UHGV virus genome: UHGV-1440165
Source of the DNA: a virus
Direction: 5' to 3' (one strand)
DNA length: 64,000 bases
Numbering within the stretch: position 1 is the first letter of the stretch; each line of letters opens with the position of its first letter. Made by a program: the position numbers and the translations under genes. Of this stretch, positions 3,338 through 59,549 are shown in pieces. The notes beneath the pieces were generated by a model that was given only the letters and a program-made list of their open reading frames with translations, was not told the DNA's origin and did not search any database.

Positions 3338-3865
3338 TCAGATACCGATAAATTCATCAAAAGATCCAACAACCTTCTTCACAGAGATCTTGTCGTTCTC
3401 AATCAGGAAGTTGCTGTCGTTCTTGGCTGCGGTAGCCCATGTGTCCGCGAGTTCATTGCCTTCAACACCCGCATGACCTTTGACCCATTTTAGTTCAACT
3501 TCACAAATTGAACTAACGAGATCATATATTCTGAACAGATCTTTTATGAGTTCAACATTCTTTTCCGGGAACCCCTGATACTCCCACTTGGCTCGCCATT
3601 CGGTGACGCTCTTGATGGTGTATTGACTGTCAGACCAAATTGTTGCCTTTGGTATCCTGCGCTCACCCTTTCCCGAGAATGCCCACAGTAGCTTCAATGC
3701 GTTGGTCACACCCAACAACTCGGCGATGTTGTTGGTGGACGGAGGAGGTAGGTGGCCGAAGAACACCTTCCATTGCATACCCGATATCGGCCTGATGGCA
3801 AAAGCCCACCCTGCAGCCTGATTTGTCCGAGGGTTAGAACCCCCGTCAGAAAAGATTTCAATCAT
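3338..3865 (-). CDS. Ribonuclease H (type 1)
   Basis: RNase H motifs IFSDGGS, TNNIAELLGVTNAL, DSQY, KGHAGVEGNELAD. ORF track extends to 3961 via a non-ATG start; first ATG is at 3865 (MIEIFSDGG...). Confidence 0.8.
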   Translation of the reverse strand: MIEIFSDGGSNPRTNQAAGWAFAIRPISGMQWKVFFGHLPPPSTNNIAELLGVTNALKLLWAFSGKGERRIPKATIWSDSQYTIKSVTEWRAKWEYQGFPEKNVELIKDLFRIYDLVSSICEVELKWVKGHAGVEGNELADTWATAAKNDSNFLIENDKISVKKVVGSFDEFIGI

Positions 3866-3867
3866 GA

Positions 3868-3875
3868 TATAAATA
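3868..3875 (+). promoter_or_regulatory. T4-type late promoter box TATAAATA (plus strand)
   Basis: Exact TATAAATA about 36 nt upstream of the ATG at 3911; RBS AGAGGAA lies between. Confidence 0.5.
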
Positions 3876-3910
3876 TCCCAAACTGGTTTTATAGAAAGAG
3901 GAATGAAACT

Positions 3911-4678
3911 ATGGCACCCCGCGCATATCGTTTCAGTCTCACCGCCCCGCAGATTGAGCAATTGCTCCTTTCTATCAATGATGCTATCAAGTCAGAAGAT
4001 ATCATCTATGATTATGCTACAGGTGGGACTGTTGGGCAAGTCGCAGCAGCGTCTGCCGTCAAGAACATGTGGCTCAAGCTCAATGAGATGGTGACAGGCC
4101 AAGGCCTCAAAGACGCCATCAACAGTGCTGGCGACAGCAACGTGTTCACCGACTATTATAAGTCTCTTCTGGATCGCGAAGGCTGGAAATTTATTGGCTC
4201 CCCAGCAGATATCCTGGCTCGAGACGATATCGACACCACGAACTTCACGGGCGGCGAAGTCATTCTACTTCAGAAGAACGCCTCAGGCAACCCTGAGTTC
4301 CAATACTGGAAGCGAACTCCCGTCGCGGGTGGTGACCCTACCTTCGCCTGGGCTTCGGTCTATGAAGGGAACTCCAACGACTCAACAATCGAAATCCCGG
4401 TGATCGGCACGAGCGTCCTCAAAGACATTCCCAAGGCTCTCTTCCATATGGTGGAGTTCCGAGTTCATGTCTATGACGAAACGCTGGGGCACTGGCAGGA
4501 TACAGACGGCAAGGTCGGTTATCGTGGTGAGGATCTGTTCTACAGCACGTACAATCATGTGCAGACCAAACCGCTCGCCACCATTGACTTCAGCCAAGAC
4601 ACAGACAGCATGAAGATCTCCGTGACTTCCCTGGAGCCGAATGTCAAATGCCATCTGTCGTTTATCGCTGGTTACTAA
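3911..4678 (+). CDS. Hypothetical late protein on plus strand
   Basis: ATG at 3911 with AGAGGAA RBS and upstream TATAAATA; 255 aa with protein-like composition. ORF track (3752..4678) begins at a non-ATG codon. Confidence 0.55.
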   Translation: MAPRAYRFSLTAPQIEQLLLSINDAIKSEDIIYDYATGGTVGQVAAASAVKNMWLKLNEMVTGQGLKDAINSAGDSNVFTDYYKSLLDREGWKFIGSPADILARDDIDTTNFTGGEVILLQKNASGNPEFQYWKRTPVAGGDPTFAWASVYEGNSNDSTIEIPVIGTSVLKDIPKALFHMVEFRVHVYDETLGHWQDTDGKVGYRGEDLFYSTYNHVQTKPLATIDFSQDTDSMKISVTSLEPNVKCHLSFIAGY

Positions 4679-12084: not shown

Positions 12085-12324
12085 TTAACTGATGTGCTTC
12101 AGAAGAGCGAAGAGGATCGCGGCCTTGGCTTTCACCTTTCCGACGACGCCTGTTTCGACATCGACTTCTTCGGCAACCCAATCTTTTCCCTTCTTGCTGA
12201 TGATAACATCGCGGCGCTGGGCATATACTTCTTTGGTCGCATACACACGGCGGAACCCTTTAGCGCGGAGCAAGCCCCAATTGCGATCAATCTCTACTGA
12301 AGTTTCGACCATTTTGTTCTTCAT
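12085..12324 (-). CDS. Hypothetical small basic protein
   Basis: 79 aa, ATG start, downstream of an early-type promoter. Confidence 0.4.
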   Translation of the reverse strand: MKNKMVETSVEIDRNWGLLRAKGFRRVYATKEVYAQRRDVIISKKGKDWVAEEVDVETGVVGKVKAKAAILFALLKHIS

Positions 12325-12375
12325 GATATAATCTTACCTTTCAACCTGGTGAACCCATCGTTCGCCAGTTATTGA

Positions 12376-12405
12376 ATAATAGGACATTCTTTAGAGGAAG
12401 TAAAC
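12376..12405 (-). promoter_or_regulatory. Sigma70-type early promoter (-35 GTTTAC, 18-nt spacer, -10 TATTAT)
   Basis: Minus-strand GTTTAC-N18-TATTAT immediately after a terminator hairpin; resembles the T4 early-promoter -35 consensus. Confidence 0.5.
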
Positions 12406-12415
12406 CCCTAAAAGT

Positions 12416-12440
12416 AAAAATCCCCAACAAACGTTGGGGA
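12416..12440 (-). terminator. Intrinsic terminator (TCCCCAAC-loop-GTTGGGGA + T-run)
   Basis: 8-bp GC stem followed on the minus strand by TTTTTA; lies downstream of the 12458..12682 gene. Confidence 0.6.
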
Positions 12441-12457
12441 TTTAATAAAAGTTATGC

Positions 12458-12682
12458 CTATTTAATTTCTCGGCTTGAATTTTCCAGTTCTAATTTTCTT
12501 ATAGCGGAAATTCTACCTTCATCAGTTGCGGGAAACTCCCAAACAGCACGACGTCCGTTGTGAGTATCACAACTTGCCAGCCAGAAGAAATTAGAGGGAT
12601 CTTTAAACAAGACCAATTTAGGGTTAGCAATATTGTTCAGGCAAAATGGGGCGAGGTCAACAACGCGTGATACAGCAGACAT
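12458..12682 (-). CDS. Hypothetical small protein
   Basis: 74 aa ORF, ATG start. Confidence 0.4.
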   Translation of the reverse strand: MSAVSRVVDLAPFCLNNIANPKLVLFKDPSNFFWLASCDTHNGRRAVWEFPATDEGRISAIRKLELENSSREIK

Positions 12683-12731
12683 AATATATACCTTCTTTCA
12701 ACGGACGGGAACGCCCCGCCCTATGAATTCA

Positions 12732-12761
12732 ATAATACGTATTTGCCTTATAGAAGTAAAC
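12732..12761 (-). promoter_or_regulatory. Sigma70-type early promoter (second copy of the GTTTAC-N18-TATTAT cassette)
   Basis: Near-identical copy of the 12376..12405 promoter. Confidence 0.5.
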
Positions 12762-12771
12762 CCCTAAAAGT

Positions 12772-12796
12772 AAAAATCCCCAACGTTTGTTGGGGA
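12772..12796 (-). terminator. Intrinsic terminator (second copy, loop inverted)
   Basis: Same TCCCCAAC/GTTGGGGA stem as at 12416..12440 with the loop sequence reverse-complemented; T-run on the minus strand; downstream of the ACP-like gene. Confidence 0.6.
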
Positions 12797-12802
12797 CTTC
12801 TG

Positions 12803-21611: not shown

Positions 21612-22865
21612 TTATTCAGGTTTCTTCAAACGATCAAGGAGATTGACAGAGCTGCGACCGAGCACAACTTCATCACAGCGCTTCTTGTAAGCACCACTTC
21701 CGTCATAACCGACCTTACCCCGAGGCTTATCTCCCCGTTGAACGGCTTCTACGCAGCGGGTGTACTTGCTCAGTTCACAGAACATGTTCTCCAGCTGCAT
21801 GACGTTCATACACTGATCTTCCGGGGCTTCAGCCGACCAGAACTGCTCCCGGACATAACCATAGTCCCCGTAAATCGAATCCTGGTGGTCACGCAGCCAG
21901 AAGATACATTCTTCATGCGTCATGCCGTCCTTGTTCAGGAACAACAGGTCGATCCCAGCGCGGCAACCCGGTCCAGCGATAGTGAAATGGTTCTCACTGA
22001 ACGGATACTCAGGAATGTACGTGAAGTCCACCCAGATCTGATAGGCCAGGAATGGACCCAAGCCTTCGATTTCGTCGTACATGGCCTGGTAGACTTCATC
22101 CGGAGATTCGCATTCCAGCAGCCGCTCGAAGTAATCAGGGTGCTTGTTGACGAATGCCCTCAGAGAACGGATGACGCGCATCGGCATGTACGGTTCCCAA
22201 CCCTCAATGGTGTAGAAGTCCGGCTCTGCTTCAGCAATTGCCTTCGCTTCTTTATAATCCATATTCTGGGTTGAACCGTCTTTGCAGATCAGATTCACCA
22301 TCATCCCACCGAAGCGCTGCTCCTTGTGGTTGACAACCAGCTCAGGGAAAGCCAGGCATTGCTTCAGGCCGCCCGTGTTGAAAGCATTGGTGAAGACTTT
22401 GCCGCCGTTGGCCTCGAACTTCTGTAAACGTTCGCGGGTCGCGTCAAGGTTGATCTTGGCGAAGTCGGAGATCGTCATCGCGCCGCCGATAGCCTGGATC
22501 GGATCCCAGAGGTTAAACATGCGGAACAACACGCAGTTGAACATCTTATCCGGCATAGACAGCGCATCGTTGTTAACGATGTTGTTGATTAGGTTGAGAG
22601 ACTGCCTGTCGTGCTCTCTCCGGACGTTGCAGAACTTGACCTGCCGTAGTATGGCATTATCCGTCCAAGGAGCAGGAAGACGCTGGACGTCCTTCTTAAC
22701 GTGGATCTTGTATCGCTCGCTCATCCATTCGTAAGAAAGACGACGATGAAACGGACTGAGCACGGGCTTGGCGGACTTGATTTTATCTTCGCGGACACCA
22801 CAATAAGGGATGTCACGGGCTTTATCTTTCATGGTATCCTCACAGAATACGAAAACAGAGGCCAT
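21612..22865 (-). CDS. Hypothetical protein (417 aa)
   Basis: ATG at 22865 (alternative ATG at 22832 with GAGGA RBS); no recognisable motif. Confidence 0.5.
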   Translation of the reverse strand: MASVFVFCEDTMKDKARDIPYCGVREDKIKSAKPVLSPFHRRLSYEWMSERYKIHVKKDVQRLPAPWTDNAILRQVKFCNVRREHDRQSLNLINNIVNNDALSMPDKMFNCVLFRMFNLWDPIQAIGGAMTISDFAKINLDATRERLQKFEANGGKVFTNAFNTGGLKQCLAFPELVVNHKEQRFGGMMVNLICKDGSTQNMDYKEAKAIAEAEPDFYTIEGWEPYMPMRVIRSLRAFVNKHPDYFERLLECESPDEVYQAMYDEIEGLGPFLAYQIWVDFTYIPEYPFSENHFTIAGPGCRAGIDLLFLNKDGMTHEECIFWLRDHQDSIYGDYGYVREQFWSAEAPEDQCMNVMQLENMFCELSKYTRCVEAVQRGDKPRGKVGYDGSGAYKKRCDEVVLGRSSVNLLDRLKKPE

Positions 22866-23790: not shown

Positions 23791-24255
23791 TTATTCGCTT
23801 TTGGCCTTCGTAGGCCGGATGATGTATTTTGGAACCAGCTTCCATTCAGGAACCTGATCATGTTTGACCACTTTGATGCGAGACATATCGGCGGCCTCAG
23901 TGATCTGCTCAGGGTTCAGAACCTTCAACATGTTCCACTGCTCCAGCAGCTTGATGATGCGGTTCATTCGCAGGATGTCCTCACGGTTGAAGCCGTTGTA
24001 GTGGCCATCCAGCATGAACAGATGCTTGAAGTGAACGATATAATACTTGCCATACTTATGAAGAATATGACAAGTCTGGTACAGAGTATTCGGCTCTTGG
24101 CGCGTGTTTACCCCAATTCGGCTCAGTGTTTCCTTGATCCCCAGGAAGATCCCTGGCCGATCTTGGTTCAATTGAACTTCAACCATACAATCAACGATGC
24201 TGGCCTCATCGTTGACGGCTGAAATGTTCAATATGTCTAGCGTATTGCGCGCCAT
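23791..24255 (-). CDS. regA: RegA-like translational repressor
   Basis: 154 aa; KETLSRIGV...LYQTCHILHKYGKYYIVHFK and EWKLVPKY match T4 RegA; sits next to the clamp-loader genes as in T4. Confidence 0.7.
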   Translation of the reverse strand: MARNTLDILNISAVNDEASIVDCMVEVQLNQDRPGIFLGIKETLSRIGVNTRQEPNTLYQTCHILHKYGKYYIVHFKHLFMLDGHYNGFNREDILRMNRIIKLLEQWNMLKVLNPEQITEAADMSRIKVVKHDQVPEWKLVPKYIIRPTKAKSE

Positions 24256-24284
24256 GACTTATTCCCCTTTTACAATAGTTTGAA

Positions 24285-24707
24285 CTACTTAGCCTTGCGC
24301 GGTTTCGCTTTGGCGTTCAACTCAGTACGTCCCATCTTCTCGCGTATCTCGGCCAGGACTTCCTGCGGCAAGAAACGGACGTACTCGGATGCCTTCTCCA
24401 TACTGATGTAGAAGTATTCGGACAGCATCTTCACATCAGGGTCTACAGCGCCCTTCTTAGACCATTTGTCATAACGTTTACGCGCCGGAATGGAATGAAA
24501 GGCGTATGACCATTGCATCCATGGAGTGATAGCATGCAGCTTATTCATCTGCTGTGCAAACACCAGAGTATCTTTGCTCTGGGCGAGACCACGCCGCGTC
24601 ATGAACGGGTCGAACCCCTTCTGCACTTCCGGATCATCGGTTTGCAGAAGGTTCTCTTTGCTGCTGTTCAGGGCAGACAGATAATCGAACAATCCAGGTG
24701 CGGCCAT
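24285..24707 (-). CDS. Clamp loader small subunit (gp62-like)
   Basis: 140 aa immediately downstream of the gp44-like gene; IPARKRYDKWSKK resembles T4 gp62 VPRGKRYGKWAKL. Confidence 0.55.
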   Translation of the reverse strand: MAAPGLFDYLSALNSSKENLLQTDDPEVQKGFDPFMTRRGLAQSKDTLVFAQQMNKLHAITPWMQWSYAFHSIPARKRYDKWSKKGAVDPDVKMLSEYFYISMEKASEYVRFLPQEVLAEIREKMGRTELNAKAKPRKAK

Positions 24708-24711
24708 AGTA

Positions 24712-25701
24712 TCACTTCCACTTGATGTTGAGCATGATGTTGGTCAGGAAGTACACGGCATGCAGCCATACGTCCCCAACCTGACGGTGCTCAATTTGAG
24801 ACTGACCGCAGACACAGACAAGGTCAGGGATAGACTCAGTCTGTACAGACATCGGCTTCTCTTTGTCCTGTGGTACACAGAACTGGAAGAAGCGGGAATA
24901 GAAGTCTTCGGTGATGTAGTTCTGATTGTCAGTCACCCACTGCTTCATGCCAGCCCAGTCATTGGCTTTCAGCATGCCGACCAGAGTGCCGAGGTCAGCC
25001 GCTTTCAACACAGCCAGGGCGCGTTCGTCAATCTTACCGAACGTGGTGACGTTGTCCTGCAGCGTACCCATGATGCGGCGGTTGTCGGGGAAATGGCGCT
25101 TAACGATAGCAGCCAGAACCTGTGGAACGAATTCAACGTTTTCGGCTCTGAGGATTTCAACGCAGCGCAGACAGAATTTACCCTGAACTTCCAGCGCTTC
25201 CTGCTCGTTCCAGATGAAGTCGATCTCACGGCAACGCGAGCGCAGAGGTTCGTTGACACGCTGCTTGGCGTTCGTGGTCAGGATAAAGGAGCAGTTCTTT
25301 GAGACCTTCTCTACGATACCCTTCAGGGATTCCTGCGCCGACATAGACAGGCGCTCAACTTCGTCGAGGATAACGACTTTGCGGCCGCCGAAGACGCTCA
25401 CGCCCGTAGAATACTGAATGACGCGATCACGGATAACATCGATGCTGTTGTCCAGGGATGCGTTGATAAACAGAGGTTGCTTACAACCGATCTCATTACA
25501 CACGGCCAGAGCAGTAGTGGTCTTGCCCGTACCCGGCTGAGGGGAGTAGAACAGCATGGACGGGATGTTGCCGCTGCCGCTGGTAATGTACCCATGGATT
25601 TTAGCGCGGACGTCCTGAGGGATGATGATCTCATCGAGGTTGTCAGGTCTGTACTTGTTCTCCCACGCATATTGGTCGGACACGATAGTGATATTGGACA
25701 T
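24712..25701 (-). CDS. Clamp loader large subunit (gp44-like, RFC-type AAA+ ATPase)
   Basis: Walker A PQPGTGKTT, Walker B VVILDEVE, SRC motif (RSRC); ATG overlaps the upstream stop (TAATG). Confidence 0.85.
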   Translation of the reverse strand: MSNITIVSDQYAWENKYRPDNLDEIIIPQDVRAKIHGYITSGSGNIPSMLFYSPQPGTGKTTTALAVCNEIGCKQPLFINASLDNSIDVIRDRVIQYSTGVSVFGGRKVVILDEVERLSMSAQESLKGIVEKVSKNCSFILTTNAKQRVNEPLRSRCREIDFIWNEQEALEVQGKFCLRCVEILRAENVEFVPQVLAAIVKRHFPDNRRIMGTLQDNVTTFGKIDERALAVLKAADLGTLVGMLKANDWAGMKQWVTDNQNYITEDFYSRFFQFCVPQDKEKPMSVQTESIPDLVCVCGQSQIEHRQVGDVWLHAVYFLTNIMLNIKWK

Positions 25702-26357
25702 TATGAATTCCCATGATATAGTTTACAGAATAGAACCCAAGCACTGTCATTATATGGGTTCCAACCTTCTTTGAATTTGTTTATCATACTCATTGCAGTG
25801 TTCTCTTTTATTGAGAACAAACGAGCAATTTTACGACAACCATCTCCGGTTTTCAACCAATGTAAGTAAACATCGCCCGATTTCAACCACATTGGTCTAG
25901 TGTTATGCAACAACGCAGCCCCTGTGTCCCAAGGGTTTATACCGAACACCGGATGAGAAGAACCTTTCCTACCGTTCATCGGATGTTCTTTCCCTTTCTT
26001 TCCTTTTAGCCAACCAGGCTTTCCCCTTCTGTGATGGTTTGGTCCTGCTGCTCTTCCGTTAGCCACAGAACACCCTTCCGGTTGAAACATCAAGTTTAAA
26101 CAGAGAGGATTTTGTGAATGTTCTGAAATGAGTTTCTGTTCTTTCCAATATGCATCTTCTGGAGAGTCGAACAATTCTACAAATATCACATCAAAGAAAT
26201 CAGAACCTTTCTTAGATATGATTTCCTTGACCGTTTGTGAAGAAGTGAAATACGAAGTGAACAATTGTAAAGGATGCGCACCCAATTTCGTTCTAGAACC
26301 AAAATAGAAAGAACCATCCTTTCCTAACAAATGATATACAAACGGTTGGTTCCTCAT
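25701..26357 (-). CDS. Putative GIY-YIG-type homing endonuclease (freestanding)
   Basis: VYHLLGKDGSFYFGS (GIY...YIG-like), downstream conserved E and N, basic C-terminal region; ATG at 26357 with AGAGG RBS; inserted between gp45 and gp44. Confidence 0.45.
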   Translation of the reverse strand: MRNQPFVYHLLGKDGSFYFGSRTKLGAHPLQLFTSYFTSSQTVKEIISKKGSDFFDVIFVELFDSPEDAYWKEQKLISEHSQNPLCLNLMFQPEGCSVANGRAAGPNHHRRGKPGWLKGKKGKEHPMNGRKGSSHPVFGINPWDTGAALLHNTRPMWLKSGDVYLHWLKTGDGCRKIARLFSIKENTAMSMINKFKEGWNPYNDSAWVLFCKLYHGNS

Positions 26358-26388
26358 TTCAGCCTCTTGTAGAAGAATCATTTCAAAT

Positions 26389-26407
26389 GGGCGGGAAAGC
26401 CCCGCCC
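26389..26407 (-). other. GC-rich hairpin (GGGCGGG-AAAG-CCCGCCC) of the recurring element
   Basis: Perfect 7-bp stem followed on the minus strand by ATTTGAAATG; a TATAAT hexamer lies just upstream. Confidence 0.45.
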
Positions 26408-26436
26408 ACACATTATAGCATCAGGCTGGAGATTGA

Positions 26437-27105
26437 TTACTCAATCTGCGCGCCGACGAAGTAATTGATCGTCGCGTCGGAGGACTGGAAGTTAACCATC
26501 TGCAGTTCAGCACAGGCACGGAGCGTGTAGTTGCCTTCGATCATCTTCAGGTTGGCAACGTCCAGAGGCATAACAAAGTCGCTCATGGCGGTTTCGCCCA
26601 GCTCTACGGTGTAGTTGTTGGAGTTGTCCAGGCCAGTAGTAGTCGCCACCATGCGGGTTTTGCCACCCTGAGCAACCAGGCGAACTGTTTTGTGGCCGAG
26701 GGTAGAACACGCACGAGTCAGTTCTTTCATCTTCTCTGGAGTGATGATCGCTTCAAAGTCGACGGAAGGCAGTTCGATGGTGTCAGCCGGGACCACAGTC
26801 AGTTCTTTGGCGGAACGCCAGAACTGCAGTTGAGAGCTTTCGCCTTTCAGCAGGATGTAGTCCTGATGGAATTCGGCTTTCGCGCCTTTAAAGGAAGGCA
26901 GACGCTGAATGGCCAGCAGCTTGGTCAGGTCCAGAATAGGGAATTCAAACGGGAAGTCTTCTTCGATCTGCGCAACGGCGATCACAGTAGAAGAATCGTT
27001 GATGCTGCGCAGCATTTTACCCGGTGTCAGAACGATAGAAGGGTTGATGGTCTCAAAGTTGGCCAGCAACTGAAGTGTACGTTCGGAGAGAGTGATCTCT
27101 TGCAT
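26437..27105 (-). CDS. Sliding clamp (gp45-like)
   Basis: 222 aa; N-terminus LQLLANFETINPSIVL resembles T4 gp45 ALLKNFATINSGIML; position upstream of clamp loader. Confidence 0.7.
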   Translation of the reverse strand: MQEITLSERTLQLLANFETINPSIVLTPGKMLRSINDSSTVIAVAQIEEDFPFEFPILDLTKLLAIQRLPSFKGAKAEFHQDYILLKGESSQLQFWRSAKELTVVPADTIELPSVDFEAIITPEKMKELTRACSTLGHKTVRLVAQGGKTRMVATTTGLDNSNNYTVELGETAMSDFVMPLDVANLKMIEGNYTLRACAELQMVNFQSSDATINYFVGAQIE

Positions 27106-27447
27106 TTATGTATCCTCAAAATATAGTGGGGGTTCAAGTCATGTTCGACGCAATCTAGTATCGCTGTGTTGTGCTTATAGAACAAGTGGCAAATTGCGCT
27201 ACGCGTTATAATAAATGCCTTCGGCATTTATGGACTTTATTAAAGATAATAACCTTTATTATTCCTATTCGCTTCGCTCATAAAACAAATACTCGTTGCT
27301 CGTTAACACTCACAACTCGTATAATACCACGCCAGATGTTCAACAAGAAAGCAGTTTTTATTCAACAGCAAAATTAATTTAATTTGGTCTAAACATGTAC
27401 GCGAAATAATATGTATGTCAGGTTAACCCAACACACGAGAGTAATAT
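27106..27447. promoter_or_regulatory. AT-rich divergent regulatory region with sigma70-like promoter elements and a stem-loop
   Basis: 342 nt without convincing ORF; plus-strand TTGCTC-N18-TATAAT near 27296..27325; second TATAAT near 27207; AAATGCC-TTC-GGCATTT hairpin near 27213..27229. Confidence 0.45.
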
Positions 27448-27825
27448 ATGAAACAGTTCGTAGGATTGTACGCAGTGGGATGCAGCAAGCCAGATGCTAT
27501 CCTCACCGCAGGGGAATTTGTTACAGGAACACCAGTGTATCTGTCACAGCTGGCGTCTGATAAGAACTTACCATCGGAACCGCGCTTTGTGCCACTTGGC
27601 CTGATGACAGGCATGAAAGTTGGCTTGTACATTGGTGTCGTTACCTTCAACGATGGTATCGAAGCGAAGGTGCTGCCATTCCAACTCAACAGTGAGCAAA
27701 CACTGAAAGAAACGATTGCTGAGCATCTGAATCCTCAGTGCCTGGCTTCCCTCGATAAATTGTTCGGCGCGGCGGGAGATGAAGGCGAGGCCACCCCCGC
27801 CTATGTGAATCAAGATCAATCGTGA
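27448..27825 (+). CDS. Hypothetical protein on plus strand
   Basis: 125 aa, ATG start, protein-like composition; the overlapping minus-strand ORF 27423..27689 looks non-coding. Confidence 0.45.
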   Translation: MKQFVGLYAVGCSKPDAILTAGEFVTGTPVYLSQLASDKNLPSEPRFVPLGLMTGMKVGLYIGVVTFNDGIEAKVLPFQLNSEQTLKETIAEHLNPQCLASLDKLFGAAGDEGEATPAYVNQDQS

Positions 27826-29324
27826 TTCCCGAGCGCCACCTTCATGAATTCCACGGGGTGACGCTCTGTTAGATAGAATTTGTATCGCTCTTGAGAATGC
27901 CTCACAGCGTGGTTCTGGGATCCTTTGTACGATGCATTGTCGACTAAGTCCCAGATCCATGCAACATCCTTAGAGGAGTGCTGGCGCATCAGACGGCCTA
28001 ATGTCTGTATGACACGGATGTATGACTTGCTCGGGTGAGCCAGTACCAGGTGATGTAGCTTTTTGATAGACACGCCCTGCTGCATTGTGCCATACGATGC
28101 CAACAGCGTGATATCCTCGCCATCTTCCATCGCTTTCTGAATACGCCGACGATCCTCGATCTTCACTTCACCGTTGATGACGAACACGTTGGGTTTCACC
28201 GCGCTCAACATCTCGTACACCACCATCATGTGGGCATCAATACGCTCAAACATGACAGCCACGTTCCCATTGAGGTTCAGTGCCATCTTCGCAATCACTT
28301 CGTTTCGTGACTGATGGGTGATGAGGTATTCAATTTCCTTGCTGTATTCCCCGTCCAGTGTCATTGCGTCGGCGATGGTATGCCTCAGCTCAATCATCTT
28401 GACTTTGATGTCAGTGGCGTAGCCCAGATTAATGAGGTCGCGAGCCGTGATGATCTTGTGATAGGTGCCGAAGTGAGCGACAACCTGCAGCCCAGCAACC
28501 TTCGTGTTCGCAAGCGTACCTGTCACGCCCAGACGCTGGTCGGCATAGATGCAGTTGTTGAGGATGTAGGACAGCTTCTCCGACTTGGAGGTGTGAACTT
28601 CGTCCACCACGATATCACCGAACTGATGGAACCATTCCTTCGGCTGATCTTGTATGCCCTGCCAGGTGCTGATTACAATCGGCTTGGTGATGTTTTTAGT
28701 CGCGCCCTCAAAGATCAGCTGAGTGTTGACAACAGGCTTCCAATCAGTCCCGTGGGAGTATTCTTCGAAGTTGTCATACAGCTGCGTAACCAGGTGGATT
28801 GACGGCACCACGATAAGCGTCCTCAGATTGCTTTCCAGAGCTTCTCTGCGTTGCCTGTAGTACCGCGCCATGACATACAGAACAAAGGACTTCCCGGCAC
28901 TCGTAGCCAGCTCACAGACGCATCTGGTCTGACGCATCGCCTTGGCTATCGTGTCAAACTGGTAATCACGGGTGATCGCATCGATGTACTCATGATTCTC
29001 TGTCCGGACTTTGGCATGCAGGCTGTTGATGAATTCGTGTATCTCTTCATCAGGAATGTTCTGAACGTATTTCAGCGCCGGGTCCAGCTCAATAGTGTAG
29101 CCGTTCTGTTTGCAGAACTTGAACACCTCGAACAACAGGCCGATGTCGATAAGGCCGGAAGATTTGGTGAACAGACGGACAATCCCATCCCATTTAGAGA
29201 ACGGGTTCGGAGTGTAGTTTGGGTCTTCGAATTTGAAGTAATCGTTCAGCTCTTCCCTGATAGAAAGATCTGCGATGCATCGCATGCGGACTTCGTTAAC
29301 CTTAACAATCTGAACGTCTGCCAT
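27816..29324 (-). CDS. uvsW: UvsW-like SF2 DNA helicase
   Basis: N-terminus FKFEDPNYTPNPFSKWDGIVRLF resembles T4 UvsW; Walker A TSAGKS, DEVH box. ATG at 29324 (MADVQ...); track start 29417 is an extension. Confidence 0.8.
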   Translation of the reverse strand: MADVQIVKVNEVRMRCIADLSIREELNDYFKFEDPNYTPNPFSKWDGIVRLFTKSSGLIDIGLLFEVFKFCKQNGYTIELDPALKYVQNIPDEEIHEFINSLHAKVRTENHEYIDAITRDYQFDTIAKAMRQTRCVCELATSAGKSFVLYVMARYYRQRREALESNLRTLIVVPSIHLVTQLYDNFEEYSHGTDWKPVVNTQLIFEGATKNITKPIVISTWQGIQDQPKEWFHQFGDIVVDEVHTSKSEKLSYILNNCIYADQRLGVTGTLANTKVAGLQVVAHFGTYHKIITARDLINLGYATDIKVKMIELRHTIADAMTLDGEYSKEIEYLITHQSRNEVIAKMALNLNGNVAVMFERIDAHMMVVYEMLSAVKPNVFVINGEVKIEDRRRIQKAMEDGEDITLLASYGTMQQGVSIKKLHHLVLAHPSKSYIRVIQTLGRLMRQHSSKDVAWIWDLVDNASYKGSQNHAVRHSQERYKFYLTERHPVEFMKVALGNHD

Positions 29325-29349
29325 ACAAAATCTCCCAAGATATATGGGA

Positions 29350-29356
29350 TATTTAG
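29350..29356 (-). promoter_or_regulatory. Late-promoter-like motif (minus strand CTAAATAT)
   Basis: CACTAAATATCCC about 26 nt upstream of the UvsW ATG. Confidence 0.4.
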
Positions 29357-30099
29357 TGGTTCGGCCATACTCCGTTCTGTTCTTTGTCCATACGATGGTA
29401 CAGGCGGACACGCTCAAACATCTTGCTCAGGATGTCATCACGGTGGAACTCGATGATGGTTGGGTTCAAAGAGGATTCGTTGGCGATGACGTTTATCAAC
29501 CGGGTGATCTTTACGCCAAACATCTGCTGGAACATGACCGAGTACAGGCAAAGCTGAATGCTGTAGTCCTCGATCATTCCGCGAGTCTTGATGGTATTGG
29601 AAGTCTTGAAGTCAATGATGGCTGGTTTACCCTCATACACCCCGATGAGGTCTACGCGCCCAGCGAGGCCAAGGACTTCGCTATATAATGGGATCTCCTG
29701 AGCATAGATCTTGCTCATCTTGTTCAGGTAAGGGAAGAGTTGCTTGAACATGAACATGTATTCGCCAGCCGCCTCAAGCACTTCTTTCATCGGGCGATTC
29801 TTCAAATACAGTTCACAGGCGAGGTGCAACTTCTCACCACGGTCGGCACACCGCATGGTCTCTAAATCGGCGGCCTCGTGTCCTAGCTTGTCCCTCCAGG
29901 CTTCTAGCCATTCATGGTCCCCAGTACGCCCAAGCATCGTCGTGACCGAAGTCAGTTTGACGCCAGTTGGTGAGACGTAGTGGCGACCATTCTCCGTCGT
30001 GACACATTCCAGTTCTTTGTATGGGAGTTCATACTGCTGGAATGTGTGGTGACGATTTTCGAAGTCGTTCAGCTTACGAAGAGCCTGGAGGGATGCCAT
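29353..30099 (-). CDS. PD-(D/E)XK family nuclease (RecB/Cas4-like fold)
   Basis: 248 aa; motif RVDLIGVYEGKPAIIDFKTS fits D...(D/E)xK nuclease core. Confidence 0.55.
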   Translation of the reverse strand: MASLQALRKLNDFENRHHTFQQYELPYKELECVTTENGRHYVSPTGVKLTSVTTMLGRTGDHEWLEAWRDKLGHEAADLETMRCADRGEKLHLACELYLKNRPMKEVLEAAGEYMFMFKQLFPYLNKMSKIYAQEIPLYSEVLGLAGRVDLIGVYEGKPAIIDFKTSNTIKTRGMIEDYSIQLCLYSVMFQQMFGVKITRLINVIANESSLNPTIIEFHRDDILSKMFERVRLYHRMDKEQNGVWPNH

Positions 30100-35402: not shown

Positions 35403-36875
35403 TCAGACCAAGACGTATTTTATCAGGCCACAGTTCCAAATCCTGACCAGACCTGCTTCAGATGCCAGTTGACTCTCCGTTTTACCTTCGACGTCATACC
35501 CCATGCGAGCAAATGAACCTTTTCTGAAACCGAATTTGTGCTCACGCATAAATGTCCCTGGTTTGTGGTATTTGTAGTCTGGCTTCTGCACTTCCTCTTC
35601 TACGAATCCGTGGGATAGGTAAATGTTGGACAATCTGCTTACAACACACCTATCCCCAAAGGAATAGATTGTGGTGTCGATAAATTTTCTTCTGAAGTGT
35701 GAAAGAAGTTTACTGAATGCCCCGTGACAGTCATGGGAAGCAAATCTGACCAATTCCAGGCCATCTTTCCTTTTAGTGAACAGCATCACGGCTTGTATGA
35801 CCCCACTCTTGTCAATTAACGACAAATGGTAGGTGGAAGAAACGGAACCTTGTATGTGGTGTTTGTCTAAAAACTCCCTCAAGCCATTTATATTTCCCCA
35901 AACGACTTTGTGTTGGCGAGCATATGACGCAGGCGTTTTAATGCCAAGTTTAGCTTTCAGAAGAGATTCGACCACTTCCTGTTTCTCAACCCATTCATCT
36001 TCCCAGATGTGGATCAACTGGATACCCTGAGTTTCACATATTTCAGTCTTTTCCAGGTGATAATGTTTCTCTTTAAAAACTTCTGAATGCCAGTACAGGC
36101 CATTAAATTCAATCGCCAATTTATGTTCATGGCAATAGATATCTAGTTGTTTACCGGATAATATGCTGTAATCAGAAACAGTGTTCACAACTCCCATTGA
36201 GGTGAGAAACTCAGATATTTCCTTTTCATAAGAAGATTTCTTGTTCCTGATAGAACCATTGCTGAACAACGCACGTTTTAGTATGGTCGAGTTTTTCATA
36301 GGGTTGTCAACACCGTAACGTTCTTGTAACGTTGCCAACGCCTTCTCCCTCACACCAGGTAATTGTAGTGTGGAGCAGCTTCCGTATTTGGATATATTCG
36401 AAGTCTCTATGGCTTTACGACCAATCCCACCTTTACACATAGAAACCTGATAACATTCTTCAGAACAATATGTTCTGTAATCTTTATCATTGATGTAAAA
36501 GTTGGTTTCCTTGGAACACACCGGGCATATTTTCACGGTCCTATTGTGTAGCCAAGCTGTGACTTTACAAGCCAAATCTTGTAGGGTGTTGTGGGCATTG
36601 GCGAACACTAAAAGGTCTACATTGATGTGCTTCATAAGCAGTTCAGATTTGCATTTTTGGATATCCAATTTGTTGTTCTTGGTAAACATATTTTTATAGA
36701 AAAATTGGCGATATGATTCCTCATCAGACAATGTCTTCACTGCTTCAAGGAAACCTTCCGGGAGGTTCTTTAGGGTGTTCGATGCGAAGGTCTTGCAAGC
36801 ATCTGAACAAAATTTCTTGTCTTTCCTGGCAGATTTAAATTGTTCATGGCAGATACCACAGATTACCTGATACAT
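35403..36875 (-). CDS. Putative freestanding homing endonuclease (zinc-finger + PD-(D/E)XK-like nuclease domain)
   Basis: 490 aa; N-terminal Cys clusters (CGICHEQF...C..C; CPVCSKE); DIYCHEHKLAIEFNGLYWH fits a D...E-x-K nuclease motif; inserted just downstream of the major capsid gene. Confidence 0.4.
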   Translation of the reverse strand: MYQVICGICHEQFKSARKDKKFCSDACKTFASNTLKNLPEGFLEAVKTLSDEESYRQFFYKNMFTKNNKLDIQKCKSELLMKHINVDLLVFANAHNTLQDLACKVTAWLHNRTVKICPVCSKETNFYINDKDYRTYCSEECYQVSMCKGGIGRKAIETSNISKYGSCSTLQLPGVREKALATLQERYGVDNPMKNSTILKRALFSNGSIRNKKSSYEKEISEFLTSMGVVNTVSDYSILSGKQLDIYCHEHKLAIEFNGLYWHSEVFKEKHYHLEKTEICETQGIQLIHIWEDEWVEKQEVVESLLKAKLGIKTPASYARQHKVVWGNINGLREFLDKHHIQGSVSSTYHLSLIDKSGVIQAVMLFTKRKDGLELVRFASHDCHGAFSKLLSHFRRKFIDTTIYSFGDRCVVSRLSNIYLSHGFVEEEVQKPDYKYHKPGTFMREHKFGFRKGSFARMGYDVEGKTESQLASEAGLVRIWNCGLIKYVLV

Positions 36876-36980: not shown

Positions 36981-38312
36981 TTAAAACAAACCTTTTATTA
37001 ACCCTTTACGGAAATACACGTTGCTGTCCTGGGCGATACCATCTGCAGTCACATAGACCTGCGGATCCTGGTTCGCTGGGATCTGAACGAATGGGTTAGC
37101 GCACAGGCCGTAGCGGGTCTTGAACGCCATACGTGGGCTGAAGGTGGTTTCACCCTGGGTGCGGTACATTTCCAGCGGCACATACGGCGCGAAGAAGATA
37201 CCAGCATCCAGCGCGGTCGCGCCTTTATATGCCAGGGTGATGTACTCTGCTACTGCATACGGGTCGATGTAAACGCGCATGCCGTTAGACAGAACACCAG
37301 CGAAGGTCTGGCCAGTTGGGTCGATCGCCAGCTTGGTGTTTTCCTGCAGCGCTGGAGCATAATCCAGCATACCGGACATTGCCAGAGCAGATGCTACGTT
37401 CGGAGAACACAGAACACGGTTGCCTTTACCACGACGGGTGTCAACACCGATGCCGTTCGCTTCGACTTCCAGCATGAAGGTCATGTACTTCCATTTTTCC
37501 AGCGCCCAACGACCGGAGATATCGGTAGAGATATCCACGATGCCGTTTGCACCGAATTTTTTGAAGCGTACTGCGCTGAAGTTCATGGTGCGGATAAACT
37601 CACGGTTCATCTCGGCCTGAATCTCAGTGACCATTACGTCAGACAGGATGCTGTCCACGTCTTCGCCGTGAATCGCCATCATGTCCTGACGCAGCTCATG
37701 GCTGTAGTCAGCGTACAGGCCGCGAGACTTCGCAGTCACGGTGGCTTTCTGCACGGTGATACCAACACGCGCCCATGGGTTTGCGGAAGTACCCAGCAGT
37801 TCAGCGTCGGTGCTTGGCATACCTTTACCGATGGTGGTCACGCCAGCGCCGGAACCTTCGATCTCAGCCTGGGTAAAGCCAGATGGGTCACCAGCCTGTA
37901 CAGTACCGTCACCGGAGTAGCCAGAATCAGCTTCCTGCATGAACAGTTCTTTACGAGACTGTGCGGTGTTGGAGCCGTCTGCAACGCCCTGGCGAGCACG
38001 CAGTGCGAAGATCTGACCGTCAGGACCAGACAGCGGCTGAACGCCGAAGAAGTCCATAGCGATGTTGATCGGCGCCAGACGTTTAGCCATGTCGATCAGA
38101 ACTGGCTGCCATTTACCAACAGTGTTGTTCAGAGAGCCAGGGGCTTCGGATTCGCCCAGGTTTTTGGCGTTCCATTCAGCCTGGTTTTGCAGCAGGCGGA
38201 CGGCAACGTTTTCGGCAGACAGCGGCTGAATCTGTTTGGACTCTTCAGAGAGTACTGGCAGCCACTCTTTGCGCATTTCTTCGGTAACAAGTTTCTTAGC
38301 CATGGTGGTCAT
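36981..38312 (-). CDS. Major capsid protein (putative, T4 gp23/gp24-like position)
   Basis: 443 aa; follows prohead protease and scaffold genes in canonical order; followed by a strong terminator. No motif-level confirmation. Confidence 0.65.
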   Translation of the reverse strand: MTTMAKKLVTEEMRKEWLPVLSEESKQIQPLSAENVAVRLLQNQAEWNAKNLGESEAPGSLNNTVGKWQPVLIDMAKRLAPINIAMDFFGVQPLSGPDGQIFALRARQGVADGSNTAQSRKELFMQEADSGYSGDGTVQAGDPSGFTQAEIEGSGAGVTTIGKGMPSTDAELLGTSANPWARVGITVQKATVTAKSRGLYADYSHELRQDMMAIHGEDVDSILSDVMVTEIQAEMNREFIRTMNFSAVRFKKFGANGIVDISTDISGRWALEKWKYMTFMLEVEANGIGVDTRRGKGNRVLCSPNVASALAMSGMLDYAPALQENTKLAIDPTGQTFAGVLSNGMRVYIDPYAVAEYITLAYKGATALDAGIFFAPYVPLEMYRTQGETTFSPRMAFKTRYGLCANPFVQIPANQDPQVYVTADGIAQDSNVYFRKGLIKGLF

Positions 38313-56896: not shown

Positions 56897-57058
56897 AACG
56901 AATCTCCTGTTGTTCTCAATATCGTGAATGATAACTCATTAATGTGTAAAACTCAAATGCGAAACGCCGGACTACGGCAGCAACGTGACGCGGCGAATGC
57001 ACAACTGGATTTTATTCTAAGTAAAAGTACAGAGCCGTAGCCCCGTACTTTGAATTGT

Positions 57059-59497
57059 TTACCAAGACCAAAGATTACCATTGGTATCACAGTTTCCAGT
57101 AGCAACAACCTTAGTCAGACCAGAACCACCCCTAGTCTGGAAGATGTTACCAGTAAGGTTAACAAGTGAGGTGTTTCCATAAGATATATTAATATCTTCA
57201 GAATACCCATAAACTATATTAGCTGACACAGTTGCAATTGCACGGCTATCCGAGTTTGTATTATCCAACCTGATACCATACTGACCAGGTGATACTGATG
57301 CATGTACAATCTGGTTGTTACTGATATTAACGTTACCAACGCTGCGAATATTACCAACAGTAAGAGCGGTATATGCCCCAGGAGTTGGTGCAGTAAACAG
57401 CATTTGATTGCCATTAAAGGAAAACCACCGCAAGCCTTGGGTTGTTGTGGTATTGGTAGTTGTTGTAACTTGGATGTTTTCAAACTGGTTATTATCAATC
57501 TTAACAGTTGCACAGGATTTAATGTGCAGAATTGCCTGCTTATTAAATGAAGTAAACTTGTTATTGACAAAGCTAACTGAAGTTAGTACATCTTGGTCTT
57601 GTTCATAATAAATACCACCAATTGATGTATACTCTGATGGGTTATTAAGAACAGCCGTGTTACCATCAAAGATAACACCCTTGCAAAGACCAATAGCAAC
57701 TAAGCAACCATTTAGTGCATCCTTGGTGTTATTACCTACAGCTACAGAATCAGTACAACTCTCAAAGTCAATGCACACATCTTTGCAGCCATCAACAGCG
57801 TTGCCAGTGATAGTAACCCTATCACCCATAGCACCCCAAATGCCACCTACGGCATTACGTACAGTGTTACCAGAGATTGTTACGTCATTACACTTACGAG
57901 GCTTAGTCATGTCATAGCCCTCATCTGCTTTAAGTGCATCTCCACCAACGAACTGGATACCTTCCTTGTGACCATCAATGTAATTACCGCTAATACGCGC
58001 CATCTTTGCATATGCAGTATAGATTGCAGCTGGTCTGAATGGCGCCCCAAGCACACCATCACCACTACCATAAGACTGACAGTTTACAACTTCAATGTTA
58101 GTACAGTAATCTGCATCCGTTGTAATAAGTGGATATGCACTACCAGCACCAAATCCAATATCATGTGCAATCATGGGGTTTGGACACTTACGAGACTTAG
58201 TAGAGAATAGCGCCATTATCACAGAGACACAGTTACGCATTGAAACATTGTTACAGGAGACTAAGTTAACAGCTGGTGCAAGTGATACACTAGATGCGGC
58301 ATCAAACCTAAGACCTTTAAAAACTATGTTAGATTTCTCAATACCTGTAAATACAGCTTGCCCCTCTTTATCAAGCGTCACCTTGATAATGGCATTATTA
58401 CCACTATGTATCTGGTTAGATTCGAGCATAAGTACACCAGAGTCAACAAGATAAGTACCAGCTGGGTAATCTATCTTGCGTGCACCAGATAATATTGCAG
58501 ATTGAAGGGCTGCGGTATCATTTGTAACACCATCACCGATAGCCCCAAAGTCACGAATGCTGATCGTCTCCAGTAGTTTGTCATGAACTGTACGTGAGAC
58601 GGCACTTGCTAACGGCTGTTTCATCCCTATCAGGGCATCACCTAATACAACGTTAGTAGTGTCCACAAGGTCGTCGCGTAGGTTAGGGTCAGTTTGCGGA
58701 ATCCAATCCGCAGTACCGACCGGGTTAGCCCCTGCGGCTATGACGTGCGGCAACGTCCCGGCCCATGAGTACCACGTCTTACTCACAGGGTCATACACTA
58801 CCTTATTACGGTCGTTAACACCGAGTGTACCTCCAGTATAGAATGTAAACCCAGCGTCAGTGTAGCCATTTTCAATCGCCCAATTAAGTTTTAATTTAAC
58901 CAAGTCAGTATCAATATCATTAAGTTCTTCCTGTACAGTTTGACCGGAAGACGTACCAATCAGACTTGCGCCTCCATCGGAAGAGAGCGCCAGGTAATTC
59001 TGCTTAATGGACATTTCTGCCACGACCCAAACTCCAGCCGCAGGCGAACCTGTGAGGAAACTCACAACTCCTGTTGTGCTGTTGTAGCTGTAGTTGACGC
59101 CAGGAACCTGGAACCGCCCATCGACGTACAGGGACTGCACCCCATAAGATGTGAAGTCTGGGGTGAATGAGGTCTCGTTGCCAACGGCCTGGAATTTGTA
59201 GATGCGGATCCCGTTTTCATAATCTTCTGGGGACAGGATCTTGTCAAACAGACAGTACACTACATCATCAGCCTCCAGCGCTCGACCGAGGTTGACTGTG
59301 TTGCCATCGATTTCGTAATTGTCTACGGGAACCTGAACTCCACCATTGATGGTGATGAAGCCTGTAACGGGATAGAACGGGAGGGAGATAAACGTCTCTC
59401 CACCCGTTGCTGTGTAAGTGTATGGAATCTGGTGCGGGGCTGTTACAACCGCTCCAAAGATGCTCTCGACGTTTCTGGTCATTTGAAGATACCCCAT
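57059..59497 (-). CDS. Tailspike protein with pectate-lyase-type right-handed beta-helix (putative depolymerase)
   Basis: 812 aa; IRDFGAIGDGVTNDTAALQSAI (about 58493..58558) is the hallmark N-terminal motif of pectate-lyase-superfamily beta-helices; N/T/G-rich repeats downstream. Confidence 0.7.
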   Translation of the reverse strand: MGYLQMTRNVESIFGAVVTAPHQIPYTYTATGGETFISLPFYPVTGFITINGGVQVPVDNYEIDGNTVNLGRALEADDVVYCLFDKILSPEDYENGIRIYKFQAVGNETSFTPDFTSYGVQSLYVDGRFQVPGVNYSYNSTTGVVSFLTGSPAAGVWVVAEMSIKQNYLALSSDGGASLIGTSSGQTVQEELNDIDTDLVKLKLNWAIENGYTDAGFTFYTGGTLGVNDRNKVVYDPVSKTWYSWAGTLPHVIAAGANPVGTADWIPQTDPNLRDDLVDTTNVVLGDALIGMKQPLASAVSRTVHDKLLETISIRDFGAIGDGVTNDTAALQSAILSGARKIDYPAGTYLVDSGVLMLESNQIHSGNNAIIKVTLDKEGQAVFTGIEKSNIVFKGLRFDAASSVSLAPAVNLVSCNNVSMRNCVSVIMALFSTKSRKCPNPMIAHDIGFGAGSAYPLITTDADYCTNIEVVNCQSYGSGDGVLGAPFRPAAIYTAYAKMARISGNYIDGHKEGIQFVGGDALKADEGYDMTKPRKCNDVTISGNTVRNAVGGIWGAMGDRVTITGNAVDGCKDVCIDFESCTDSVAVGNNTKDALNGCLVAIGLCKGVIFDGNTAVLNNPSEYTSIGGIYYEQDQDVLTSVSFVNNKFTSFNKQAILHIKSCATVKIDNNQFENIQVTTTTNTTTTQGLRWFSFNGNQMLFTAPTPGAYTALTVGNIRSVGNVNISNNQIVHASVSPGQYGIRLDNTNSDSRAIATVSANIVYGYSEDINISYGNTSLVNLTGNIFQTRGGSGLTKVVATGNCDTNGNLWSW

Positions 59498-59518
59498 AGA
59501 GGATTTGCCAATATGGGG

Positions 59519-59525
59519 TATTTAG
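59519..59525 (-). promoter_or_regulatory. Late-promoter-like motif (GACTAAATACCCC)
   Basis: About 22 nt upstream of the 59497 start. Confidence 0.45.
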
Positions 59526-59549
59526 TCTAAAGAACGATTTGTAGATTTA

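Follow-up and report, generated by a model that had tools for sequence, protein, structure and literature searches.

A probable SegE-like homing endonuclease gene between the gp45 and gp44 genes of an Ackermannviridae phage

We analysed a 64,000-nucleotide stretch of the UHGV virus genome UHGV-1440165 (the window), which belongs to an Ackermannviridae (ViI-like) phage carrying a T4-like replication module and is neither T4 nor a member of the Straboviridae. Between the sliding clamp gene gp45 and the clamp-loader ATPase gene gp44, the window holds an open reading frame (ORF) which is very probably a free-standing, SegE-like GIY-YIG homing endonuclease gene (HEG) that moved by homing (Table 1). 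The gene is an uncharacterised addition to the known SegE-like kind, and the identical protein is already correctly annotated in GenBank: protein XPQ57370.1 of Yersinia phage CAU_YEP3 (record PQ863687), a phage 98% identical to the window over the ORF region, is 100% identical to the ORF product and is labelled 'homing endonuclease'. An earlier note on this DNA had described a 218-aa ORF inserted between gp45 and gp44; the ORF was confirmed, on the minus strand and with both neighbours identified by Pfam, and its insertion was shown by synteny with relatives whose site is empty. That note had taken T4 as the comparison genome, whereas ViI-like phages are the proper comparison.

The anatomy of the insertion was established by aligning 10 occupied, more than 25 empty and two scar sites. 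Empty sites were found in the Kuttervirus phages S117, CBA120, sal1 and Vi01, in the Taipeivirus May, in the Agtrevirus phages Ag3, ChubbyThor and EspM4VN, in A221, in the Limestonevirus JA15 and in 17 IMG/VR loci. At these sites, the gp45-gp44 spacer of 77-86 nt consists of a hairpin, then TTTGAAA, then a segment ending in AGAGGCTGnAATG, whose last ATG is the gp44 start, while in the occupied genomes the identical spacer, ribosome-binding site (RBS) and ATG start the endonuclease rather than gp44. An identical or near-identical AGAGGCTGAAATG was located directly before gp44 codon 2 in JA15, ChubbyThor, EspM4VN, Ag3, A221, S117, CBA120, Vi01, May and the 17 IMG/VR loci. The net insert, as measured against the empty sites, amounts to 656 bp, equal to the ORF, and is flanked by a 4-nt AATG repeat. 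The comparison of these sites indicates that the endonuclease took over the native RBS and ATG of gp44, which is now preceded by the 3' end of the endonuclease gene. By analogy, translation of gp44 is plausibly coupled to that of the endonuclease via the stop/start overlap at this junction.

The endonuclease gene was present in 16 of the 247 matching phage records. In Agtrevirus and Kuttervirus, same-site orthologues occur in rabagast, allotria, KE31, SP-9-14, YX22 and pSal-SNUABM-02; each is inserted at this site, is 218 aa long and shows the stop/start overlap. The insertion falls at exactly the same point in two subfamilies. The HEG-positive (HEG+) phage rabagast and the HEG-free S117 are 98.6% identical across the flanking genes. 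All same-site orthologues but the one of CAU_YEP3 carry a second, common allele with about 78% nucleotide identity to that of the window. Between pSal-SNUABM-02 and the window, gp45, gp44 and gp62 are 98-99% identical and the endonuclease gene only 78.4%, while between pSal-SNUABM-02 and the Kuttervirus KE31 the same three genes are about 77% identical (gp62 73%) and the endonuclease gene 94%, values which point to a phylogeny of the endonuclease gene in conflict with that of its flanks. The differences between the window and pSal-SNUABM-02 form one patch of about 160 mismatches, which begins within the endonuclease gene (nt 82-172) and ends at gp44 nt +54; on either side of it, the two sequences are nearly identical. 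Compared to the common allele, that of the window and CAU_YEP3 is a mosaic, with 96-100% identity over nt 1-170, 51-80% over nt 180-540, where synonymous sites are saturated, and 85-98% at the 3' end. The dN/dS ratio between the two alleles is 0.14-0.18, so that both are kept functional, under purifying selection. The GC content is 39.7% in the ORF compared to about 53% in the flanking gp44 and gp45.

The hallmark of the GIY-YIG superfamily is a pair of tripeptides, GIY and YIG, 10-11 residues apart on a beta-hairpin. In the ORF product, the equivalent tripeptides are V7-Y8-H9 and Y18-F19-G20, on modelled strands 6-12 and 17-22. A search with the single ORF sequence returned two proteins only, and a profile including paralogues was needed: built from the ORF together with Ackermannviridae and Rhizobium-phage paralogues, it retrieved 320 homologues. 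Among the best 120 of these 320, the SegE_GIY-YIG family PF19835 was found in 86/120 (E<=0.001), NUMOD3 in 27/120 and the GIY-YIG family PF01541 in 11/120. In the 120-sequence alignment, residues Y18, G20, Y36, S39, E73 and N88 were invariant and Y8 nearly so, and the 15-residue spacing of E73 and N88 is that of E75 and N90 in I-TevI (I-TevI sequence checked against 1mk0). PHROG 314 'homing endonuclease' matched the full length of the protein (1.1e-16), and four more endonuclease PHROGs matched its C-terminal half. The AlphaFold2 model made from the same alignment (mean pLDDT 85.4) showed two confident domains and a low-confidence linker; aa 1-95 were modelled as beta-beta-alpha-beta-alpha, with 10-residue block pLDDT means of 83-98 over aa 1-90 and of 75 for aa 91-100. 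With Foldseek, the first two matches in the PDB were the I-TevI catalytic domain, 1mk0 (probability 1.0, TM 0.67 on target) and 1ln0, and 120 matches with E<=1e-3 were obtained among viral predicted structures (BFVD), the 50 listed being mostly named GIY-YIG, Seg-like or NUMOD3 endonucleases. The GIY-YIG-like N-terminus of the earlier note is thus supported by PHROG 314, by the PF19835 matches of the homologues and by the predicted fold, and the profile and structure comparisons that it had suggested as a check recovered a GIY-YIG fold in spite of sub-threshold Pfam scores.

The same note had assigned a basic region to the C-terminus. The basic region is real but central, corresponding to the linker, which is the most diverged part between the two endonuclease alleles and in which no match to the NUMOD3 HMM was found; the true C-terminus is a predicted helix-turn-helix (HTH) domain with a pI of 9.3. 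This domain resembles HTH and winged-helix DNA binders and also occurs, with 29% identity, in a NUMOD3-bearing endonuclease of a T4-like Slopekvirus. The ORF product is therefore modelled as a GIY-YIG endonuclease with the classic modular layout of nuclease, disordered basic linker and HTH DNA-binding domain. PDB sequence searches, with the single sequence or an 8-sequence profile, were uninformative, giving spurious matches to beta-propeller 'DGTIYFGS' repeats and one marginal GIY-YIG match (1zg2, E 0.089).

The 5' tract of gp44 varies with the state of the site. Between the window and pSal-SNUABM-02, gp44 exhibited 16 differences in nt 1-54 and then 3 in the next 850 nt. Codons 13-18 of gp44 read TGG GAA AAC AAR TAY CGY (WENKYR) at all empty sites except that of A221, TGG GAG AAC CGT TTC CGC (WENRFR) in the eight common-allele carriers from two subfamilies, and TGG GAG AAC AAG TAC AGA (WENKYR) in the window and CAU_YEP3. 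At codon 14, all unoccupied genomes examined have GAA and 10/10 occupied ones have GAG; at codons 16-17, which encode either KY or RF, the scar phages keep RF, with GAA at codon 14. Homing endonucleases generally target conserved codons of essential genes (PMC2988022). Here, gp44 is the probable target gene, and by analogy there is an even chance that the target itself corresponds to the region of codons 12-18. In a mixed infection, the protein would bind and cut the endonuclease-free allele, most likely within these codons (WENKYRP), and repair of the break from the HEG+ genome would copy the gene together with the adjacent ~54 nt of gp44. The substitutions of the tract (GAA->GAG, plus AAA-TAT->CGT-TTC or CGC->AGA) would then protect the carrier from self-cleavage. 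Since the window contains a 5-hmdU DNA kinase gene, the phage DNA is expected to bear hypermodified thymidines, as in ViI-like phages, and an endonuclease acting on co-infecting genomes would therefore have to cut modified DNA.

Several points weigh against this scheme. Cleavage of the endonuclease-free allele is argued by analogy from the behaviour of the T4 Seg enzymes, which usually cut hundreds of bp from their own gene, and a target within 54 bp is thus not guaranteed (PMC2988022). Rather than immunity changes, the differences in the gp44 flank could be variants that hitch-hiked with a single ancestral insertion. Their association with occupancy is also imperfect, as the Escherichia phage A221 carries the RF haplotype (GAA AAC CGC TTC) at an empty site; A221 either has a variant of the target that is naturally resistant or arose through precise loss by recombination. 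As for the protein, the single sequence scored below the gathering cut-off for both Pfam GIY-YIG (PF01541; 16.1-18.5 bits, cut-off 22.6) and Pfam SegE_GIY-YIG (PF19835; 15.4-18.1 bits, cut-off 25), and membership in the GIY-YIG superfamily rests on transitive homology and fold, not on the Pfam score of the ORF itself. The hhalign comparison with I-TevI was weak (probability 25%), aligning R27 of I-TevI with L32 rather than with an Arg, and H31 with the invariant Y36; in the 120-sequence alignment, the family consensus has an Arg at position 22 (YYGxR).

A deletion scar was found in LIMEstone1 (positions 2200-2305 of locus L001) and Coodle, where, in a 104-nt spacer, the hairpin/ATTTGAAATGA is fused with the terminal 45 nt of the endonuclease gene. 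In LIMEstone1, these 45 nt are 100% identical to those of the window. The deletion corresponds to 631 bp between two AATGA copies and also removed the native gp44 RBS. The 45-nt remnant derives from the endonuclease gene and not from the backbone, because it encodes D204, W207 and F210, which are conserved in paralogues located elsewhere. A comparison with LIMEstone1 only would suggest that the last 15 codons are read from ancestral spacer; this was ruled out by the empty sites of Kuttervirus, Agtrevirus, Taipeivirus and JA15 and by the same three residues. JA15, of the same species (Limestonevirus limestone) as LIMEstone1 and Coodle, has a pristine empty site, and its gp44 is 92% identical to that of LIMEstone1 versus 97.8% for gp45. 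Since the 3' end of the endonuclease gene now supplies the gp44 upstream region, its clean loss would be constrained, and the loss observed in LIMEstone1 and Coodle kept exactly that 45-nt 3' end. In the LIMEstone1 record, an annotated 'putative middle promoter' spans the junction of the scar, and the LIMEstone1 paper describes 14 endonuclease genes, none of them at the gp45-gp44 site.

More tentatively, and with odds that we put well below even, the two alleles might compete at this one site with different target specificities, each homing into carriers of the other, with the element hard to delete and its scar a permanent gp44 signal. If this were true, allele-against-allele homing would explain the ~540-630-bp patch by which the window differs from pSal-SNUABM-02, 98-99% identical elsewhere, and each allele would be linked to its own gp44 recoding, GAG AAC AAG TAC AGA in the window and GAG AAC CGT TTC CGC for the common allele. 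Capture of the gp44 start codon and RBS would have made the element hard to delete, and in LIMEstone1-type phages the scar would be a permanent gp44 expression signal.

The alternative that survives best, although improbable, is a domesticated, immobile endonuclease-derived gene, kept for excluding competitor phages, for regulating gp44 initiation via the HTH or through dependence of gp44 on its 3' end. Purifying selection would fit any such function, and the stop codon that overlaps the gp44 ATG, together with the upstream region supplied to gp44, would fit the last of them; however, gp44 works in LIMEstone1 with the 45-nt remnant only, and the whole ORF is thus not needed for it. I-TevI doubles as a repressor (PMC2988022) and no Arg can be aligned to its R27, but the catalytic Tyr, Glu and Asn are invariant in the family. 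A gene 94% identical between subfamilies with ~77% identical flanks, at the exact site, and a sharply bounded conversion patch between two 98-99% identical backbones both argue for recent lateral movement.

Vertical inheritance of a gene ancestral to the Ackermannviridae and repeatedly deleted, so that its patchiness reflects loss and not homing, is very unlikely. Loss does occur, as the microhomology-mediated deletion scar of LIMEstone1 and Coodle attests, but none of the more than 25 empty sites examined bears a scar and all have the native RBS directly in front of gp44, a pristine state that would require many exact excisions. The identity of the endonuclease between subfamilies (89-94%) is moreover far above that of the flanks, and its GC content marks the gene as foreign. 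A chance ORF, or a gene wrongly called within a long intergenic spacer, which has nothing but the sub-threshold Pfam scores in its favour, can practically be dismissed because of the 16 same-site orthologues of the same length, the large family of 320 homologues, the dN/dS of ~0.14, the GC contrast, the confident two-domain fold and the Shine-Dalgarno sequence at optimal spacing.

Regarding its limits, the ORF starts with an ATG at 26357..26355 and stops with a TAA at 25703..25701, and the product begins MRNQPFVYHLLGKDGSFYFGS. A purely mechanical call started at a GTG at 26411 and gave 236 aa. The ATG at 26357 is taken as the real start because a Shine-Dalgarno sequence, AGAGG, is present at 26367..26363, five bases upstream, and because every orthologue is annotated from that ATG. 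For the NCBI protein P0001, which comes from a Salmonella Newport assembly (a 157-kb contig that is evidently phage DNA), the annotation gives 226 aa and places the start at an ATG further upstream, within the hairpin/spacer (26358..26381); comparison with the empty sites shows that the start giving 218 aa is right. No group I intron or other credible Rfam match was detected within 24000-28000, and gp44 and gp45 are intact on either side. An RnaG match in Rfam, with 28 bits for a 153-bit threshold, was rejected as chance.

The GC hairpin and ATTTGAAA which the earlier note had seen before the ORF are present, with GGGCGGG-gcttt-CCCGCCC at 26389..26407 followed by ATTTGAAA at 26381..26388, but they are not part of the inserted element. 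As both occur at every empty site examined, they belong to the backbone, in the conserved gp45-gp44 spacer. The stem sequence varies by genus with the pairing kept (GGCGGGG/CCCCGCC in Kuttervirus, GCAGGGGC/GCCCCTGC in Taipeivirus). The record of Klebsiella phage May annotates the spacer hairpin as a terminator; its assignment as a canonical intrinsic terminator was unsupported, since it has no T-run and fails a simple terminator scan. A long-range RNA pairing hiding the Shine-Dalgarno sequence (CAGCCU/AGGCUG) was also rejected, being unconserved in Kuttervirus and Taipeivirus spacers and having a fold z-score of only -1.7.

Among known systems, the closest in kind are the T4 Seg enzymes (SegA-G; PF19835), which are likewise free-standing, with an N-terminal GIY-YIG nuclease and a separate C-terminal DNA-binding module. 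Like the window gene, they are located between conserved essential genes, in the same orientation and inside an existing polycistronic unit, their flanking markers are co-converted, and expression signals for the downstream essential gene lie inside the HEG. T4 offers precedents for intronless homing, for stop/start overlaps and for HEGs whose retention is favoured by promoters embedded in them (PMC2988022). The locus is different, T4 having nothing between genes 45 and 44, and unlike several T4 seg and mob genes, which overlap the upstream gene, the window gene sits on the start codon of the downstream gene and takes its RBS. The Seg enzymes typically cut at a distance of hundreds of bp, whereas the co-conversion tract of the window would imply a target within ~54 bp. 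In structural alignments, the window protein shows a low identity of 16-24% to proteins named Seg. In contrast to I-TevI of the T4 td intron (PDB 1MK0/1LN0; 14-19% identity), the window protein is not intron-encoded and has neither a zinc finger in the linker nor an Arg aligned to R27. F-LimVI of the Dickeya phages LIMEstone1/XF4 and the 'GIY-YIG homing endonuclease' of Salmonella phage Maynard, also from Ackermannviridae, belong to the same family over the full length (36-39% identity) and share the three-part architecture, but are located between rnh and gp55 and have longer linkers with extra Gly/His repeats. Ackermannviridae, and especially Aglimvirinae, carry 14-25 homing endonuclease genes per genome, at positions which vary between isolates.

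As far as our literature searches reached, no description was found of the start-codon takeover, of the series of empty, occupied and scar sites or of two alleles with distinct gp44 haplotypes. Public genomes preserve the empty, occupied (with two alleles) and deletion-scar states at one site, with a sharply bounded putative co-conversion tract in an essential and highly conserved clamp-loader motif. This series might serve as a cheap experimental system for target recognition and immunity of free-standing GIY-YIG endonucleases and for allele-against-allele homing. It also bears on how the translation signals of an essential gene may be captured by a selfish gene and then replaced for good, and would explain local mosaicism in the replication genes of ViI-like phages under development for biocontrol.

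Table 1 Features of the gp45-gp44 locus and neighbouring genes in the window.
Feature	Coordinates	Strand	Details
Putative free-standing homing endonuclease gene	25701..26357	-	218 codons + TAA; between gp45 and gp44
Predicted GIY-YIG nuclease domain, aa 1-95	26073..26357	-	Y8 (VYH), Y18-F-G20 (YFG), Y36/S39 (YFTSS motif), E73, N88
Basic Gly/His/Lys-rich linker, aa 96-140	25938..26072	-	pI 11.6; predicted disordered, pLDDT 41-69
Predicted C-terminal helical DNA-binding domain, aa 141-218	25704..25937	-	predicted HTH ~aa 169-197; conserved tail motif GWNPxxDxxW
AGAGGCTGAAATG translation initiation region	26355..26367	-	that of gp44 in empty-site genomes; here starts the endonuclease
TAATG stop/start overlap	25699..25703	-	endonuclease TAA overlaps re-created gp44 ATG by one base; in 10/10 HEG+ genomes examined
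Last 45 nt of endonuclease gene	25702..25746	-	now gp44 upstream region; weak GGA Shine-Dalgarno 7 nt before ATG
AATGA microhomology, right copy	25747..25751	-	left copy 26378..26382
gp44 nt 1-54, putative co-conversion tract	25648..25701	-	travels with endonuclease allele
gp44 codons 12-18 (YAWENKYRP), candidate recognition/cleavage region	25648..25668	-	candidate only
Hairpin (7-9 bp GC stem, 5-nt loop) + ATTTGAAA	26381..26408	-	gp45-gp44 spacer element, upstream of ORF
gp45 sliding clamp	26437..27105	-	Pfam gp45-slide_C; annotated in relatives; upstream neighbour of ORF
gp44 clamp-loader ATPase	24712..25701	-	Pfam AAA + Gp44_lid; downstream neighbour of ORF
gp62	24285..24707	-	Pfam
regA	23791..24255	-	Pfam
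uvsW	27816..29417	-	Pfam; intact, 533 aa
5-hmdU DNA kinase	21612..22865	-	Pfam 1e-82

Some further observations were made in the vicinity of the locus and elsewhere. In LIMEstone1, uvsW (positions 3685-4364 of locus L001) is split by an annotated intron/endonuclease, I-LimI, while uvsW of the window is intact; uvsW is a second polymorphic mobile-element site, less than 2 kb away. At 27001..27600, gp45 and a plus-strand ORF of 125 aa (27448..27825) are separated by a divergent intergenic region of low GC content (36-39%), which holds two terminator-like hairpins, at 27211-27231 (+) and 27413-27436 (-). The 125-aa ORF gave no Pfam match, and its 'clamp loader subunit' label in CAU_YEP3 looks like a propagated misannotation. 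No paralogue of the endonuclease gene was found elsewhere in the 64-kb window. On the minus strand, at 35403..36875, a 490-aa ORF of low GC content (~35-40%) adjoins the major capsid gene gp23 (36981..38312), with Cys-rich zinc-ribbon-like N-terminal repeats, a DUF7487 segment and matches to endonucleases of the DUF559/Vsr/MTES_1575 type (PD-(D/E)XK-like). It is probably another free-standing homing endonuclease gene, and presumably the 'first' endonuclease implied when the gp45-gp44 ORF was earlier counted as the second. More low-GC islands, which may mark further segments of lateral exchange, were observed at 12301-12800 and 56901-60200; those at 57-60 kb lie inside two large ORFs of 812 and 984 aa that are tail-spike-like.

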